In this document: positions 21,127 to 54,787 of the stretch, piece after piece | Layout: every line of letters starts with the position of its first letter | Numbering within the stretch: the stretch's first letter is position 1 | NCBI GenBank assembly: GCA_041662245.1 | Contig: JBAZSW010000004.1 | Span: forward strand, 11,454 to 75,453 | Direction: 5' to 3' | Source of the DNA: Parcubacteria group bacterium | Lineage (GTDB): Bacteria > Patescibacteriota > Minisyncoccia > Moranbacterales > UBA9337 | DNA: 64,000 nt | Made by a program: the position numbers and the translations under genes | Notes under the pieces: model-generated | Databases searched by the model: none | The model's input: the letters and a program-made list of their open reading frames with translations, nothing else | Told to the model about the DNA's origin: nothing

Positions 21127-21452
21127 AAAAAACTCCTTTCATCTGACAATTTAATGTCAGTCGGAACTATAATTGTTTTATCTTTATGGACTTTCCCTCT
21201 CTGGTGAGGAATGTGAAATTTGATAATCACATCACCAGTTTTGGGCAGATAATTGTCTACCCTTAGATGAACTTCATTTTGAAAAATTTCCATTCCTCCG
21301 AAATGATTATACAATCCATCTGGATCTTCAAGTTCAAAATTATGAGAAGCTACCATCTCTTTCTCTTCAAAAAGACTTATAAGAAAAATGTTTTGGTCTT
21401 TTACTGCCATAGCTATCATGCCATAATTTTTTTTACCAAATTCAAATTTCAT
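21123..21452 (-). CDS. Hypothetical protein (109 aa).
   Basis: ORF only; no recognisable motif. Confidence 0.35.
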   Translation of the reverse strand: MKFEFGKKNYGMIAMAVKDQNIFLISLFEEKEMVASHNFELEDPDGLYNHFGGMEIFQNEVHLRVDNYLPKTGDVIIKFHIPHQRGKVHKDKTIIVPTDIKLSDERSFF

Positions 21453-22015
21453 CCGTTCTCTCCATTCTCATACTTTTTAATAAAAAATGAACAAGTCCCC
21501 TTCTGACTATAACCCATTTATTGTAATATAATATCTGAAGTTAATCAAATTCGGTATAATTAACAGTACCGCCCAATGGCTTATTGGTACATTGCCCTAT
21601 CCTCTTGTCAGTTTATCACTAACAATGTATAATATCATATAGATACAATTTAATCAAGTATTGATGTGGTCTCACCAACCATGGAGCTTGTGTTTTTAGG
21701 GATTTAGCAAGATAAATCCCAAAAAGTCGCCCAAATAAAATCGGGAAGCTAAGTGGAACCGTCCAAGCTTTGGACCTTAGCAATTCATAATTTTGTTTTG
21801 GCGTTTTTTTATTTTTTATTAAAGGCAAAGCCGAAGGCGGGTTTCACAAATTAAACAATCAGCTATATCTAAATAAATACTAGGTTTTGTTGCGGGAGAT
21901 TTATCCACAAGGTCGAAATGACAAACTCGAATGATTCATTGAAAAATTAAGCCTCTCTCGGCACTTTTTCAATTACCAAAAAATAACTAAATAATAATTT
22001 TAACACATAAATAAT

Positions 22016-23758
22016 ATGAATAAAGAAAACAAAAATGAAATTTTAAAACATTCTACAGCTCACATTTTGGCTGCAGCTGTTTTGGATATGTTTCCCGAGG
22101 CTAAATTTGGAATCGGACCAGCCATTGAGGAAGGCTTTTATTACGATTTTGAATTGCCTCGAACTCTCATTCCTGAAGATTTAGAAATTCTCGAAGAAAA
22201 AATGCAAAATATTATCAAGGAAAATCATCTTTTTGAAAGAAGGGAGATTTCTATTGAAGAAGCCTTGGAGCATTTTACGAAACTTAACCAAACTTACAAA
22301 ATTGAATTAATCAATGATTTAAAAAACGCAGGCGAAACCACTGTGTCCGTTTACAAATCTGGACATTTTACTGATCTTTGCCGAGGACCGCATGTTGAGT
22401 CTACTAAAGAAATAAATTCACAAGCTTTCAAATTAACCAAGATTTCTGGCGCTTATTGGAAAGCAGACGAAAAGAACACTCAATTGCAAAGAATCTACGG
22501 AGTAGTTTTTAGCGATAAAAAAGAATTGAAAGAATATTTACATCAACAAGAGCAGGCTAAGCTAAGAGACCATAGAAAAATTGGAAAAGAATTGGATTTA
22601 TTTTCTTTTCATGAAGTGGCTCCAGGCATGCCGTTTTTTCATCCTCGTGGAACTATCATTTATAATGAGTTAAAAAATTTCTGGATTGAAACTCAAAAAG
22701 AATTTAGTTATGAAACAATTCTCTGTCCTTCTATGTTGGACGTCTCTATTTGGAAAAAATCAGGACATTGGGATCATTACAAGGATGATATGTATTTCGT
22801 AAGTGCTGGAGAAAATGAAAAGCAGTTTGCATTACGTCCAATGGATTGCCCAGGAGCAATCTTGGTTTATAATAATTCTCTGAAGTCATATCGAGACTTG
22901 CCCCTACGCTACGCTGAGCCAGGCTTAATTACTCGTAAGGAAAAATCCGGACAACTCGGAGGATTACTTCGCGTTCAACAATTTACTCAAGATGATGCTC
23001 ATATTTTCATTAGCACAGATCAAATCAAAGAGGAAATTAAGAACGTAATCCAACTAATAGACAAAATCTACAAACCATTTGGCTTAGAATACAAAGCCTA
23101 TCTCTCTACTCGCCCAGAAGACTTTATGGGTAAAATAGAAGATTGGGACAAGGCTGAAGAATCTTTAAAAAAAATACTCGAAGAATTATATGACGGCAAT
23201 TACGGCCTTAAAGAAAAAGATGGAGCGTTTTATGGTCCAAAAATTGATTTTCAATTAAAAGATGCTATTGGAAGAACGTGGCAATGTGCCACGATTCAAC
23301 TAGACTTTCAAATGCCTCTCAAATTCGATTGCAAATACATAGACAAAGATGGGAAAGAAAAGACACCTGTTTTGATTCATCGAACCATAATGGGCTCTTT
23401 TGAGCGCTTTATGGGAATTCTAATTGAGCACTACGCCGGAGCTTTCCCAACTTGGCTTTCCCCCATTCAAGTAGCTATCGTACCTGTGAGTGAAAAATTC
23501 AATGACTACGCCAATGACGTAAAAAATAAACTTATAACCAGTGGGATTCGAATACACTTAAACATAAAAGATGAAAGCCTAGGTAAAAGAATCCGCGAAG
23601 AGGAAAAATTAAAAGTTCCTCATATCCTCATAATTGGAGAAAAGGAAGTTGCTGACAGCACTGTGACTGTGCGCTCACGTGGAGTGAAAAAACAAAAAAC
23701 TTTAGGAGTGGAAGAATTTGTGAGTCAAATTATGAAAGAAGTGGCTAACAAAAAATAA
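22016..23758 (+). CDS. thrS: Threonine--tRNA ligase (short form lacking the N-terminal TGS domain).
   Basis: HSTAHILAAAV editing-domain start. Class II motifs FRVQQFTQDDAHIF, HRTIMGSFERFMGILIEHYAG, and the anticodon-binding C-terminus. Confidence 0.92.
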   Translation: MNKENKNEILKHSTAHILAAAVLDMFPEAKFGIGPAIEEGFYYDFELPRTLIPEDLEILEEKMQNIIKENHLFERREISIEEALEHFTKLNQTYKIELINDLKNAGETTVSVYKSGHFTDLCRGPHVESTKEINSQAFKLTKISGAYWKADEKNTQLQRIYGVVFSDKKELKEYLHQQEQAKLRDHRKIGKELDLFSFHEVAPGMPFFHPRGTIIYNELKNFWIETQKEFSYETILCPSMLDVSIWKKSGHWDHYKDDMYFVSAGENEKQFALRPMDCPGAILVYNNSLKSYRDLPLRYAEPGLITRKEKSGQLGGLLRVQQFTQDDAHIFISTDQIKEEIKNVIQLIDKIYKPFGLEYKAYLSTRPEDFMGKIEDWDKAEESLKKILEELYDGNYGLKEKDGAFYGPKIDFQLKDAIGRTWQCATIQLDFQMPLKFDCKYIDKDGKEKTPVLIHRTIMGSFERFMGILIEHYAGAFPTWLSPIQVAIVPVSEKFNDYANDVKNKLITSGIRIHLNIKDESLGKRIREEEKLKVPHILIIGEKEVADSTVTVRSRGVKKQKTLGVEEFVSQIMKEVANKK

Positions 23759-23791
23759 AAAAGTCCTTAAAATATAAAGCTCTCTCGCTCC

Positions 23792-24224
23792 TGTCATCCT
23801 CGCGAATGCGGGGATCTCCTGTAAGTTAAATAAATAAAATAATATGAAACATTATTACGTTTATATTTTAACAAATAAAAAGGATGGCGTTCTATATATT
23901 GGAATTACTAATAATCTAGAGCGAAGGGTTTGTGAGCACAAAAATAAAAAAATAAAAGGATTCACAGAAAAATATAATTTAGATAAATTAATTTTTTATG
24001 AAGAGACTAACGACGTGGCATTTGCTATCCAAAGAGAAAAGCAGTTGAAAAAATGGAATAGAAAATGGAAAATAGATTTAATAGAAAAAGATAATCCAAA
24101 TTGGACAGACTTGGCAAGTAGCTGGTATGGAGATTAAATGTAGAGATCCCCGATAAATTAATTTCTGAAGTTCTCCGCCGGCTGGCGGATCGCTAAGAAA
24201 TTATATTTTCGAGGATGACACACT
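23792..24224 (+). mobile_element. Mini-element carrying a GIY-YIG nuclease gene. Bounded by inverted termini tgtcatcctcg..cggggatctc (left 23792-23819; right 24141-24224 as reverse complement).
   Basis: Exact 11-bp terminal inverted repeat tgtcatcctcg/cgaggatgaca plus an inner cggggatctc/gagatccccg. Related solo copies of the right-end region (R3) occur at 27530-27597, 53359-53450 and 54645-54716. Confidence 0.55.
23844..24137 (+). CDS. GIY-YIG nuclease family protein (YhbQ/UPF0213-like, 97 aa).
   Basis: N-terminal YYVYILTNKKDGVLYIGITNNLERRVCEHK GIY-YIG signature. Confidence 0.85.
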   Translation: MKHYYVYILTNKKDGVLYIGITNNLERRVCEHKNKKIKGFTEKYNLDKLIFYEETNDVAFAIQREKQLKKWNRKWKIDLIEKDNPNWTDLASSWYGD

Positions 24225-24341
24225 GAAAAACAATTTTTATTCTTAAAAAGTATATGCCTAGGTATATACTTTTTAATTTGAATTTTATTTTTTATTTCAA
24301 TACCCAAAAAACTACTGCCTACAAGCTACCTACACTGAATT

Positions 24342-26072
24342 CTACCATCCTCCGCCACCGCCTCCACCACCGCCACCTCCAGCTCCACCGCCACCTCCTG
24401 AACCCGAAGGAGCAGAAGTATTGGCAGAAATACTCTCCGATAAACTCGTCATTGCAGAAGAAAAGTTATTAGCATCAAACGTTCCTAAGCTGCTACCTAC
24501 ATACCAAGCTGGCACATGTGTAGCAAAATATTCTTCCCCGTAAATTTCTTTTATTTTTTTTATCCAAATATCCGTAATTTCAAATAAAATCGCGTAAGGA
24601 AGAAACTTCTCAAAAATATTTTCTTCTTCATAAAACTTCGCCCTATCTTTATCCACTGTTTCCATAAAAAGTTTAAAACCATCAATTTGCCACTTCATTT
24701 GGGCTCCCTCTGTAGTCCGTTTGGGCATAATAAAACTAAAAATCAAAAAAATTATACTAGCAGAAATCGTTGCTAAGGCCAAACCTACAGAAACACTAAA
24801 TAACATCATTCCTCCAAAGATAGTCAAAAAACAAAGAATCTGAAAAGCTGTCGCAAAAGAAAGTCCTGATTTTACAATTAAATTTTTGTTAATTAATATT
24901 TCAGTCCCTTTTTTCTTAACATCGGCCAAAACTTTATAAAAACTATTTTTTAATGAAGACAAAGTTACAATATTACCCGCACTAAATACTTCATCTAAAA
25001 TAGCTTTCTGAGCTTCATTTAAGCCCTTTTCAGCCTCGGCATTATTAGTTCGAGTAAACTCATAATCTTTGGAATGAAAAAATAATATTTTATTATCCAC
25101 TTCCCTTATAGTTAAAATTTTCTGAGTGGCAAAATTGATTATCTCGGCTGTAATAAAATTATTTTTAAAAGTTCCATTACTAAGCAACAACCCCATCTCT
25201 AGAGGAGACATTCCCTTGGGTGCTTCATACTCGGCAATGACAGTTTTATCCAGCTTGGGATCTTTGCCATATTTCTGCCAAAGCCTAAAGCAAATAGAAA
25301 AAATAATAACAGGAATCAGGAGAGAAAAATATTTTCCATATTTTTCCCAAAAACTAGGAATGTAAGGAGTGAAAATATTTTTAGGAAAAGTTACTGCAGC
25401 GGTAATTCCCTGTCCTACCGCTAACGTCCCTATTGAGTTAACTTCCAACATATTACTATTCATCCATTTAAAATCAGCCAAAATATTCCCTTTTTCACCC
25501 AAAAAACCAGAATATATATCCACAGTACTATTTTCTTTTTTTACTTCTTCAGGAAAAATTATTTCAATGCGTGCACTATCAATTTCCAAATCCCAAAAAT
25601 TTCCTGTTAAATTCCAGTAGAATTCATCAAAATTATTATTATAAAAACGAATAGCATTTTTTACTCTATATTTAATTACATAAATGTGTGTGCCTTGGAC
25701 AGTTGTGCTGGCATCTCCAATTTTCCAAGTTACAGTATTATCACTACTGTTTTTAGACTCGGTAAATTTATAGTCATTACCATTTTCGTCTTTAATACTA
25801 ATAAGATCAATGGGAGTTTTCACAGTCCCCTTGCCATCAATATTTATTTTTTCAGGCAATATTCGAAATATTCCATGTTTACCAATAGCTTCACCACAAT
25901 CAGCCACAATCTTTTCAGTGATATTCAAACTAGAATCTCGATTAATAACTATTTGAGAATCTAATCTTTTTACATACCAATCAGTAACGTTTTCGCGAGC
26001 CAGAGAATCTCCAACAAATAAAAATTGTGTGGCAAATAAGGCTAAAATTAGTTTGAAATAAATGTTTTTCAT
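24342..26072 (-). CDS. DUF2207-domain membrane protein with a C-terminal poly-Gly tail.
   Basis: Signal/TM at the N-terminus and a central TM pair. Long extracytoplasmic N-domain. C-terminal SGSGGGGGAGGGGGGGGGGGW typical of DUF2207 proteins. Confidence 0.7.
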   Translation of the reverse strand: MKNIYFKLILALFATQFLFVGDSLARENVTDWYVKRLDSQIVINRDSSLNITEKIVADCGEAIGKHGIFRILPEKINIDGKGTVKTPIDLISIKDENGNDYKFTESKNSSDNTVTWKIGDASTTVQGTHIYVIKYRVKNAIRFYNNNFDEFYWNLTGNFWDLEIDSARIEIIFPEEVKKENSTVDIYSGFLGEKGNILADFKWMNSNMLEVNSIGTLAVGQGITAAVTFPKNIFTPYIPSFWEKYGKYFSLLIPVIIFSICFRLWQKYGKDPKLDKTVIAEYEAPKGMSPLEMGLLLSNGTFKNNFITAEIINFATQKILTIREVDNKILFFHSKDYEFTRTNNAEAEKGLNEAQKAILDEVFSAGNIVTLSSLKNSFYKVLADVKKKGTEILINKNLIVKSGLSFATAFQILCFLTIFGGMMLFSVSVGLALATISASIIFLIFSFIMPKRTTEGAQMKWQIDGFKLFMETVDKDRAKFYEEENIFEKFLPYAILFEITDIWIKKIKEIYGEEYFATHVPAWYVGSSLGTFDANNFSSAMTSLSESISANTSAPSGSGGGGGAGGGGGGGGGGGW

Positions 26073-27529: not shown

Positions 27530-27597
27530 TGTCAGAGATTCCTCCACTTCTAAATTTTTGACTACAAAAATTTATTCGGTCGGAATGACAATACCAA
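27530..27597 (+). repeat. R3 repeat (solo copy of the right-terminal region of the GIY-YIG element).
   Basis: tcagagattcctccacttctaaatttttgactacaaaaatttattcggtcggaatgacaatacc. ~80% identical to 54645-54716 and to the reverse complement of 53359-53450. Confidence 0.7.
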
Positions 27598-41807: not shown

Positions 41808-42087
41808 GGTTTAGCTTATTAGGTATTAGGTTATAGCTTATTAGTTTTTAAAATAAAATTATATAGACATGTCATTTCGATCAAATAAATTTATACGTGG
41901 AGAAATCTTAATTAAAAAATTAAAACAATTCAACAATATAACAATTCCAACACTTAGAACATTAATCATCTTACCATTTTTTATTAAAATTAAAAAGCTA
42001 TATCAATCCCCCATATATTAAATAAAACCTCTTGCAAGGTATCGACCTCACAAGAGATTGGCAAAATTTTTATATTATCGTTTTCTT

Positions 42088-53358: not shown

Positions 53359-53450
53359 ATTATCATCTCGACTCGCCTCGCTAAAGCTACTGCAAAGCGG
53401 ACTAGATAATTTTTTGTACTCAAAAAATTAGAAATGGAGAGATCTTTTAA
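53359..53450 (-). repeat. R3 repeat (reverse orientation) carrying a diverged 33-nt GC hairpin insert (tcgcctcgctaaagctactgcaaagcggactag, 53373-53405).
   Basis: tcatctcgac[insert]ataattttttgtactcaaaaaattagaaatggagagatctt matches the reverse complement of 54645-54716. Confidence 0.7.
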
Positions 53451-54253: not shown

Positions 54254-54282
54254 AAACCCCGATATTAATCGGGGATTATTTG
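54254..54282 (-). terminator. Rho-independent terminator of tRNA-Ala (ccccgattaatatcgggg + ttttt on the minus strand).
   Basis: Perfect 7-bp stem ccccgat/atcgggg. A partial second copy together with 11 nt of the tRNA 3' end lies at 54059-54098. Confidence 0.7.
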
Positions 54283-54355
54283 TGGACCGAACAGGACTCG
54301 AACCCGCCACCTCCTCAGTGCAAATGAGGCGCTCTACCAGATGAGCTATCGGCCC
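54283..54355 (-). tRNA. tRNA-Ala (anticodon TGC), CCA encoded.
   Basis: Reverse complement: gggccgatagctcatctggtagagcgcctcatttgcactgaggaggtggcgggttcgagtcctgttcggtcca. G3:U70 pair present. Confidence 0.85.
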
Positions 54356-54644: not shown

Positions 54645-54716
54645 AAAAGAAATCTTCTCAAGATCTCTCCACTTATAATTTCTTGAGTACAAAAAATTAT
54701 TCGGTCGAGATGACAC
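54645..54716 (+). repeat. R3 repeat copy, inverted relative to 53359-53450.
   Basis: aagatctctccacttataatttcttgagtacaaaaaattattcggtcgagatgacacac. Confidence 0.7.
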
Positions 54717-54787
54717 ACAAAAATTTTCATATATATTTTTCGCTGAAACAATATTGTGTTATTATGCTAACATGTTGAACTGATAAC

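Follow-up and report, generated by a model that had tools for sequence, protein, structure and literature searches.

Behind the threonyl-tRNA synthetase gene of an uncultured Parcubacteria/Moranbacteria-group bacterium lies a small gene for a GIY-YIG nuclease that is bounded on both sides by inverted repeats, and this arrangement raises the question of whether gene and repeats represent a small mobile element or a nuclease together with the DNA motifs that it recognizes. A first-pass annotation of the region had favored the former and described the unit as the footprint of a small selfish element. The stretch of DNA that was analyzed, referred to as the window in the following, comprises 64,000 nucleotides and is AT-rich with a G+C content of 32.8%.

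The nuclease gene, here termed ssn, encodes a protein of 97 amino acids, as annotated before, which contains the GIY-YIG domain PF01541 of Pfam (residues 4-77, E=1e-18) and no domain other than this one. BLAST identified a single copy of the gene within the 64-kb window, and the closest homologues of the protein originate from Candidatus Moranbacteria. The gene and its flanking repeats form a cassette whose left end is located 33 nt past the stop codon of thrS, in agreement with the position just after thrS given earlier, and beyond the cassette follows a convergent gene encoding a DUF2207 protein. An exact look-up of the ThrRS and DUF2207 proteins of the window returned no identical record. 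Cassette and DUF2207 gene are separated by an AT-rich palindrome with a perfect stem, which is probably a bidirectional terminator and was missed by the terminator scan because the stem is devoid of G+C pairs. This palindrome is also kept 3' of thrS in two relatives lacking the cassette (loci L103 and L104), where its alignment scored above all shuffled sequences. No Rfam family was found at gathering threshold in the whole window or at E<=1 over positions 21400-24400, which include the hairpins and the thrS leader, and these searches gave no group I/II intron or ribozyme signal at the locus. The positions of all features are compiled in Table 1.

Table 1. Features of the ssn locus and related hairpin units, numbered from the first nucleotide of the window.
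Feature	Position	Strand	Sequence	Remarks
Marginal short R3-type unit	21897-21925	-	GTCATTTCGACCTTGTGGATAAATC	profile E=0.022; between thrS leader and thrS
thrS (threonyl-tRNA synthetase)	22016-23758	+		upstream neighbor; homologues with Pfam tRNA_SAD, tRNA-synt_2b and HGTP_anticodon
Left SRM hairpin unit	23792-23819	+	TGTCATCCTCGCGAATGCGGGGATCTCC	GTCAT end directed away from the gene; matches the published SRM pattern
Outer inverted repeat, left copy	23792-23802	+	TGTCATCCTCG	11 nt, exact
Inner inverted repeat, left copy	23809-23818	+	CGGGGATCTC
ssn	23844-24137	+		97 amino acids, GIY-YIG
Right SRM-like unit	24143-24220	-		inverted; outer 11 nt and closing stem ATCCTCG/CGGGGAT in common with the left unit
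Inner inverted repeat, right copy	24143-24152	-	CGGGGATCTC
GC hairpin	24174-24189		TCCGCCGGCTGGCGGA	within the right unit
Outer inverted repeat, right copy	24210-24220	-	TGTCATCCTCG	11 nt, exact
AT-rich palindrome with perfect stem	24243-24276	.	TTAAAAAGTATATGCCT/AGGTATATACTTTTTAA	between cassette and DUF2207 gene
R3-type unit	27534-27591	-	GTCATTCCGACCG...GTGGAGGAATC	profile E=1.4e-18; fold z=-3.6; gene-less, between open reading frames
Short R3-type unit	41869-41909	+		profile E=1.5e-5; inner hairpin lost, no stable fold; intergenic
Degenerate R3-type unit	53359-53446	+		profile E=2.8e-11 over 53400-53446; ATC replaces GTC; extra insertion of ~35 nt
R3-type unit	54659-54717	-		profile E=1e-18; fold z=-2.4; gene-less, intergenic, adjoins tRNA-Ala

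The inverted repeats themselves were as described in the first-pass annotation. The outer repeat occurs exactly twice in the window, once at each end of the cassette (0.44 matches were expected by chance with one mismatch allowed), and can be extended to 16 nt at 88% identity; the inner repeat is likewise restricted to its two positions beside the gene. The left unit represents a self-contained hairpin, ATCCTCGC-GAAT-GCGGGGAT, with a predicted fold of -6.4 kcal/mol as single-stranded DNA (z=-3.2). The right unit corresponds to the reverse complement of the left one with an insertion of ~52 nt in the loop, which consists of an AT-rich stem with the GC hairpin noticed earlier at its tip. The right end, with this hairpin capping its long stem, is predicted to fold at -17.7 kcal/mol as single-stranded DNA (z=-4.8). 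The long-loop form of the right unit is kept in relatives (loci L002, L005, L007, L008 and L012), and long-loop units resembling it were also found in other phyla. No T-run is present 3' of either flanking hairpin, and the terminator scan called neither of them.

A nuclease-hairpin pair of this kind has recently been described. The Ssn proteins form a family of site-specific single-stranded DNA (ssDNA) nucleases with cognate hairpin repeats, called NTS in Neisseria and Ssn-related motifs (SRM) in their general form (Chenal et al., 2025, Nat Commun 16:2388, PMC11893778). They are single-domain GIY-YIG proteins of ~94 amino acids (CDD cd10448), and Slx1 is given as a separate family inside the GIY-YIG superfamily; the Neisseria NTS reads CGTCATTCCCGCGMAVGCGGGAATCYRG, and the degenerate SRM pattern was published as HGTCWYN(0-2)YYVSBRHN(0-5)WNVSBRGN(0-2)RNCYNB (PMC11893778). 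An SRM occurs near the gene in 71% of the Ssn homologues and on both sides of it in 42% (PMC11893778). The four characterized enzymes bind the hairpin only as ssDNA and only on one strand, cut a few nucleotides 5' of the motif and do not cut double-stranded DNA; the GTC 5' of the palindrome is required for cutting and the C 3' of it for binding, and altering the stem sequence abolishes activity, while splitting the NTS into halves on separate oligonucleotides does not prevent cleavage (PMC11893778). In Neisseria, Ssn reduces transformation by motif-bearing DNA about five-fold (PMC11893778).

The protein of the window is 49% identical over 85 amino acids to the SsnA orthologue of N. gonorrhoeae (94 amino acids; 94.7 bits, E=4e-32). 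This reference, the gonococcal orthologue of the characterized N. meningitidis enzyme, was taken from a chromosome that is filed as a plasmid in PLSDB; it is the single match of that chromosome and represents an open reading frame of 94 amino acids with Y6, Y17 and E64 that lies inside an NTS array. These three residues are the ones mutated in the published work (PMC11893778), and they align with Y7, Y18 and E65 of the window's protein in invariant columns of the alignment. The motif agrees as well: the SRM pattern has one match in the 64 kb, with 0.06 expected, and this match coincides exactly with the left unit, which also agrees, in a gap-free comparison, with the Neisseria NTS consensus at 21 of its 28 positions. 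The right unit fails the published pattern even if the loop length is relaxed. Both flanking units carry the GTC directly 5' and the C directly 3' of the palindrome. Pfam and NCBIfam assign the protein only to the generic GIY-YIG domain, with all NCBIfam matches below threshold.

We conclude with high confidence that the locus belongs to the Ssn/SRM system described in that study and consists of an Ssn-family GIY-YIG endonuclease gene with two flanking SRM hairpins. The flanking repeats are accordingly best read as recognition hairpins of the nuclease and not as terminal repeats of the transposase type. The first-pass annotation had correctly assigned the nuclease gene, the inverted hairpins at its ends and the gene-less hairpins to one kind of repeat system and had noted that such cassettes are not a textbook class; the class has, however, been in print since 2025, including the hypothesis of its mobility. 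A search for literature on GIY-YIG genes linked to REP sequences, inverted repeats or transposases returned nothing relevant besides the Ssn paper.

The layout of the window was found to be widespread. Eighty loci with homologues of 52-71% amino acid identity were fetched from Bacteroidota, Cloacimonadota, Omnitrophota, Planctomycetota, Ignavibacteria, Proteobacteria, Bdellovibrionota, Spirochaetes and several candidate phyla, and the 75 of them with enough flanking sequence were counted. At 56 of the 75 loci, the hairpin unit closest to the gene upstream was on the plus strand; the closest one downstream was on the minus strand at 56, and both applied to 45, so that the GTCAT ends face outward as they do in the window. 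At only four loci did the nearest units face inward, which is also the orientation of the NTS copies nearest to the gonococcal gene. Hairpin units were 30-fold denser near the gene (8.9 per kb within 150 nt, as compared to 0.29 per kb beyond 300 nt), the median distance between upstream unit and start codon was 26 nt and that between stop codon and downstream unit 9.5 nt, and a T preceded the GTC in 42-43 of 45 units. A looser detector (GTC, a 5-bp stem and C) yielded 18 units with 12 expected and was therefore, as it is not specific in AT-rich DNA, used only near genes and with a minimum stem length of 6 bp.

The hairpins without a nuclease gene elsewhere in the window, termed R3, had been regarded as solo ends homologous to the right end of the ssn element. 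By BLAST, the three loci given for them (27530, 53359 and 54645) are indeed related to each other, with 88-93% identity over 34-41 nt. A profile built from two copies of the window and three copies from relatives recovered these and in addition the short unit at 41869-41909 and the marginal one at 21897-21925, both of which had been missed before; the latter occupies the position at which three relatives carry the ssn cassette. However, neither BLAST nor the R3 profile linked any R3 copy to the right end of the GIY-YIG unit. What the two have in common is the general plan, GTCAT-arm-[AT-rich inner hairpin]-arm-C, together with the terminal motifs TCGArrATGACA and AGATC. The GTC and the C adjoining the palindrome are retained in four of the five R3 copies, and the arms covary among copies (ATCTC/GAGAT, ATTTC/GAAAT and ATTCC/GGAAT). 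All R3 copies are intergenic, and no R3-type unit was found beside ssn homologues in the loci fetched. Judged by these sequence features, the R3 units are a separate sister subfamily of hairpins and not detached ends of the ssn element. The 64 kb thus hold two hairpins of ssn's own type, four clear R3 units and one marginal R3 unit, and no cognate nuclease for R3 was identified within them.

We infer both cleavage by the window's protein and its biological role from the characterized relatives. By this analogy, Ssn would bind the hairpin when the DNA is single-stranded, exclusively on the strand reading GTCAT-stem-loop-stem-C, and would then hydrolyze the backbone a few nucleotides 5' of GTCAT. 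As both GTCAT ends point outward, the predicted cuts would fall just outside the cassette and on opposite strands, at ~23786-23791 of the top strand and 24221-24226 of the bottom strand. The enzyme should tolerate the long loop in the right unit, since cleavage of the NTS does not depend on its halves being joined. The likeliest role would be the trimming or restriction of motif-bearing ssDNA and, by that, a modulation of recombination, as in Neisseria transformation. As the Neisseria gene has the rare inward layout, the consequences of cutting may differ between the two.

Among the other explanations, the one that adds a selfish life cycle to the Ssn/SRM reading holds up best, although we consider it unlikely on balance. 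It regards the SRM-ssn-SRM cassette as an autonomous mobile element resembling insertion sequences, REP/RAYT systems or homing elements, in which the nuclease nicks beside its own hairpins and the cassette is then moved or copied through the recombination or repair of the host, with the gene-less hairpins as its non-autonomous relatives. The outward GTCAT ends bear on this possibility, as the predicted nicks bracket the cassette, and the authors of the Ssn study themselves put forward a hypothesis along the lines of insertion sequences or REP/RAYT (PMC11893778). The comparison of thrS flanks among relatives, proposed as a check by the first-pass annotation, revealed changes in both presence and position. 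Homologues with 79-88% amino acid identity occupy at least four contexts: downstream of thrS (the window and L002-4), between the thrS leader and thrS (L007, L008, L012), following an SMC-like gene (L005/6), and between the genes encoding a glycosyltransferase and a DNA polymerase III delta'-like protein (Pfam DNA_pol3_delta2; L009-11). In the two closest ThrRS relatives (L103, 88%; L104, 87%), ssn is absent on both sides of thrS whereas the palindrome 3' of thrS is kept. In addition, gene-less outward-facing doublets spaced ~50 nt apart occur at L007 and L008 (SRM type) and at L103 (R3 type), a Flavivirga locus (L044) has three cassettes in tandem, and the Ssn protein is 52-71% identical across many phyla. 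Between cassettes in different contexts, homology ends at the outer GATGACA; such an end would, however, also be expected if the hairpins were merely conserved binding sites.

Several further results speak against mobility. Target-site duplications are absent from 43 of the 45 surveyed loci and also from the window (GCTCC|...|CACTG), where ssn is single-copy. GIY-YIG enzymes hydrolyze DNA, and to our knowledge neither strand transfer nor a covalent intermediate has been described for them. Codon identity between the window and L002 was 67% for ssn (n=79) and hence barely above the 56-60% of the flanking genes, so that nothing indicates a recent transfer; as a test, this was negative or uninformative. 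The cassette stays at the same locus between Hanstruepera species and likewise between Kordia species. The Ssn family had no match in 50,697 phage records and nine weak ones in IMG/VR, and 33 of 72,556 plasmid records matched, several of them being chromosome-sized. An exact empty site was not obtained, as the spacers between thrS and the palindrome at L103 and L104 do not align with that of the window beyond the palindrome, and therefore no exact junction can be defined. A remnant of the right unit that was suspected at L104 did not exceed shuffled controls. Of the selfish element proposed initially, the layout reminiscent of insertion sequences thus stood, whereas the missing duplications, the single copy in the window and the missing phage matches did not fit. 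As duplications, signs of a recent transfer and the chemistry of a transposase are all missing, mobility of the cassette is treated here as a hypothesis. In its most far-reaching version, the cassette would be a self-propagating element of a new mechanistic class, in which a hydrolytic, ssDNA-specific GIY-YIG nickase cuts just outside its own outward-facing hairpins and the cassette is moved or copied from one hairpin-bearing site to another by host recombination; we regard this version as doubtful, too. If it applied, the cassette would have non-autonomous relatives similar to REP sequences and REPINs in the R3 units and in the doublets without a gene, and the three states around thrS in Moranbacteria (upstream, downstream and absent) would be footprints of its movement.

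The first-pass annotation had called the element homing-endonuclease-like. A homing endonuclease of the classical GIY-YIG kind, whether free-standing or carried by an intron, would cut double-stranded DNA at an allele lacking it and be inserted there through repair; such an enzyme appears highly improbable here. The GIY-YIG domain, a weak NCBIfam match to a group I intron endonuclease (23 bits, cut-off 56) and the variable position among relatives would be in accordance with such an enzyme. However, the protein comprises 97 amino acids in all, lacking the C-terminal DNA-binding domain, there is no intron or intein around the gene, no gene is interrupted by the ssn of the window, and the family has no counterpart in the phage records. 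The characterized Ssn relatives, moreover, leave double-stranded DNA uncut (PMC11893778). Least probable of all is a housekeeping structure-specific nuclease of the YhbQ/UPF0213 (Slx1-like) type with repeats that are incidental or simply transcription terminators. In its favor, ssn is short, encodes a single domain and is probably transcribed together with thrS, and the UPF0213 protein BH0048 (PDB 1zg2) is the best match of its product among solved structures (E=0.002). But this match reaches 21.7 bits as compared to 94.7 bits for the SsnA orthologue, the same hairpins flank 45 of 75 homologues across phyla with strong local enrichment, and the flanking hairpins lack T-runs, terminator calls and matches to Rfam families, so that the bit scores and the hairpin survey effectively refute the YhbQ-type assignment made initially. 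The fit to SRM and NTS, the identity to SsnA, the aligned Y/Y/E residues and the low score to BH0048 together identify the gene as ssn.

As the finding is explained by the 2025 paper, its main value lies in the correct annotation of the locus as an ssDNA nuclease of the Ssn type together with its hairpin motifs, neither a YhbQ-type gene nor a new class of transposon. It extends the Ssn family to candidate phyla, namely Moranbacteria and other Parcubacteria, Saccharibacteria and Peribacteria. Candidate-phyla bacteria depend on DNA uptake. Across phyla, the survey establishes the layout with cut-directing GTCAT ends facing outward as the dominant one. Since the long-loop SRM variants and R3 escape the published pattern, motif counts based on this pattern underestimate the number of repeats. 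The development of Ssn enzymes into ssDNA tools is under way, and new pairs of enzyme and motif with distinct stems are potentially useful reagents.

The locus can finally be set against the systems that it resembles. With insertion sequences it shares the terminal inverted repeats (11 nt exact, 16 nt at 88%), but not a target-site duplication or a recombinase of the DDE, HUH/Y1, serine or tyrosine type, as the sole open reading frame of the cassette encodes the GIY-YIG protein. REP/RAYT systems (REPINs) consist of IS200/IS605-like Y1 transposases bracketed by repetitive extragenic palindromes. Like these, the cassette has a single-copy gene between inverted hairpins that also occur without the gene, sometimes as doublets, in intergenic DNA, and in both the protein recognizes a hairpin in ssDNA, which for ssn is concluded from homology. 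In contrast, the ssn product is a hydrolytic GIY-YIG enzyme without a Y1_Tnp domain and not a HUH/Y1 protein, and therefore no covalent intermediate would be available for strand transfer. YhbQ, UPF0213 and Slx1 proteins are small GIY-YIG proteins of similar length, differing by the low score to BH0048 given above. At the relative's locus L005, a different small GIY-YIG gene without SRM flanks adjoins a tRNA gene and is possibly nearer to the YhbQ/UPF0213 type.

In the dRS3/NIME repeats of Neisseria, the palindrome of the NTS is formed by the dRS3 core ATTCCC-N8-GGGAAT, whose equivalent in the window is the stem and loop of the left unit. These repeats form dense arrays with hundreds of copies (9 pattern matches in 3.2 kb around ssnA), whereas the window has two units. 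The same applies to the numbers in Neisseria and Wolbachia, with hundreds of copies there as compared to one match to the SRM pattern in the 64 kb analyzed. Within the Ssn/SsnA system itself, the locus differs further by its host, as the main text of the Ssn study names no candidate-phyla lineage (PMC11893778), by GTCAT ends that face outward as in the majority of the survey whereas the nearest NTS copies of gonococcal ssn face inward, by the 52-nt loop insertion of the right unit that lies outside the published pattern, and by the co-resident R3 subfamily with its different stems. The locus agrees with this system in the single-domain GIY-YIG protein of ~95 amino acids, the catalytic Y/Y/E residues, the SRM flanking the gene on both sides and the presence of gene-less hairpins in intergenic DNA.

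Conflicting similarities were obtained for thrS and other genes when the window was compared with its relatives. The ThrRS of the window is only 62-66% identical to those of L002, L007 and L008, three loci of ssn homologues, whereas in the same lineages RecG (86%) and DUF2238 (82-87%) are much closer to the window's proteins. Conversely, ThrRS identity reaches 88% with L103, which along with L104 represents the closest ThrRS relatives and carries no ssn beside thrS, but the DUF2207 membrane proteins of the two are just 70% identical. ThrRS, in addition, occurs in two forms of unequal length (580 and 603 aa). These discrepancies suggest that some of the lineages have exchanged their thrS for an allele of foreign origin. 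The DUF2207 protein itself ends in a C-terminal glycine run (…SGSGGGGGAGGGGGGGGGGGW), which is kept in the L103 orthologue.

A conserved leader of ~175 nt was identified 5' of thrS, with copies in several relatives. In one stem, the loop displays an ACC (Thr) codon that is invariant. The leader further contains the motif AAGTGGAACCGTCC and a long helix resembling a terminator, with a T-run after it, and compensatory changes occur in 9 of its 47 predicted pairs. The leader looks like a compact T-box riboswitch; no Rfam family matched it, including at a threshold relaxed to E<=1. The ssn cassette, i.e., the gene with its two SRM hairpin units, is placed between leader and thrS in three relatives, L007, L008 and L012.

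Coordinates of features in the window and in loci of relatives
Feature	Sequence	Position	Strand
thrS leader	window	21640-21815	+
thrS leader	L002	2888-3069	
thrS leader	L008	4769-4935	
thrS leader	L012	637-809	
thrS leader	L103	2730-2911	
thrS leader	L104	105-287	
thrS leader	L122		
thrS leader	L123		
Marginal hairpin unit	window	21897-21925	
thrS	window	22016-23758	+
SRM unit	window	23792-23819	+
DUF2207 gene	window	24342-26072	-
R3 unit	window	53359-53446	+
tRNA-Ala	window	54282-54355	-
R3 unit	window	54659-54717	-
Gene-less outward-facing doublet, SRM	L007	526-668	
Gene-less outward-facing doublet, SRM	L008	5345-5487	
Gene-less outward-facing doublet, R3	L103	5520-5673	
Tandem ssn cassettes	L044	998-2302	
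Y1_Tnp gene	L012	33-488	-
Second GIY-YIG gene	L005	11150-11560	- (of locus)

In Flavivirga sp. 57AJ16 (L044), three ssn cassettes are arranged in tandem with a period of ~505 nt, each having a GTCATTCCTGCGGAGGCAGGAATC unit upstream (+) and downstream (-). Hairpin doublets without a gene were also detected, their units ~50 nt apart; those of L007 and L008 are of the SRM type found at the window's ssn ends. The L007 spacer includes GAAAATGGAAA, which is also found in ssn coding sequence, and this doublet is possibly, though not provenly, the remnant of an internally deleted cassette.

The L012 locus, whose Ssn is the closest to the window's among the relatives examined (88%), harbors a 151-aa Y1_Tnp gene (IS200/RAYT-type, PF01797) immediately 5' of the thrS leader. 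As this gene is flanked by GC-rich hairpins of its own, a second hairpin-associated gene type adjoins the ssn cassette. In L005, a second small GIY-YIG gene (~80 aa, MFYTYVLKSKKDNDLYIGFTEDL...), unrelated to ssn, is located directly 5' of a putative tRNA-like sequence, the first ~25 nt of which are duplicated before the gene. The arrangement resembles another type of GIY-YIG cassette, one that targets a tRNA gene.

Plasmid counts for the ssn family are too high, since PLSDB includes chromosome-sized records: NZ_CP119140.1 and NZ_CP119142.1 are 2.17-Mb Neisseria gonorrhoeae chromosomes entered as plasmids, and several further matching records measure 3.5-4.9 Mb.

Within the window, thrS, like ssn, is bracketed, by a marginal unit on one side and the SRM unit on the other. 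Elsewhere, two units of the separate R3 hairpin subfamily, their GTCAT-type ends pointing outward, enclose a 1.2-kb segment carrying tRNA-Ala and small ORFs. This segment shares with the ssn locus a 'motif-cargo-motif' arrangement.
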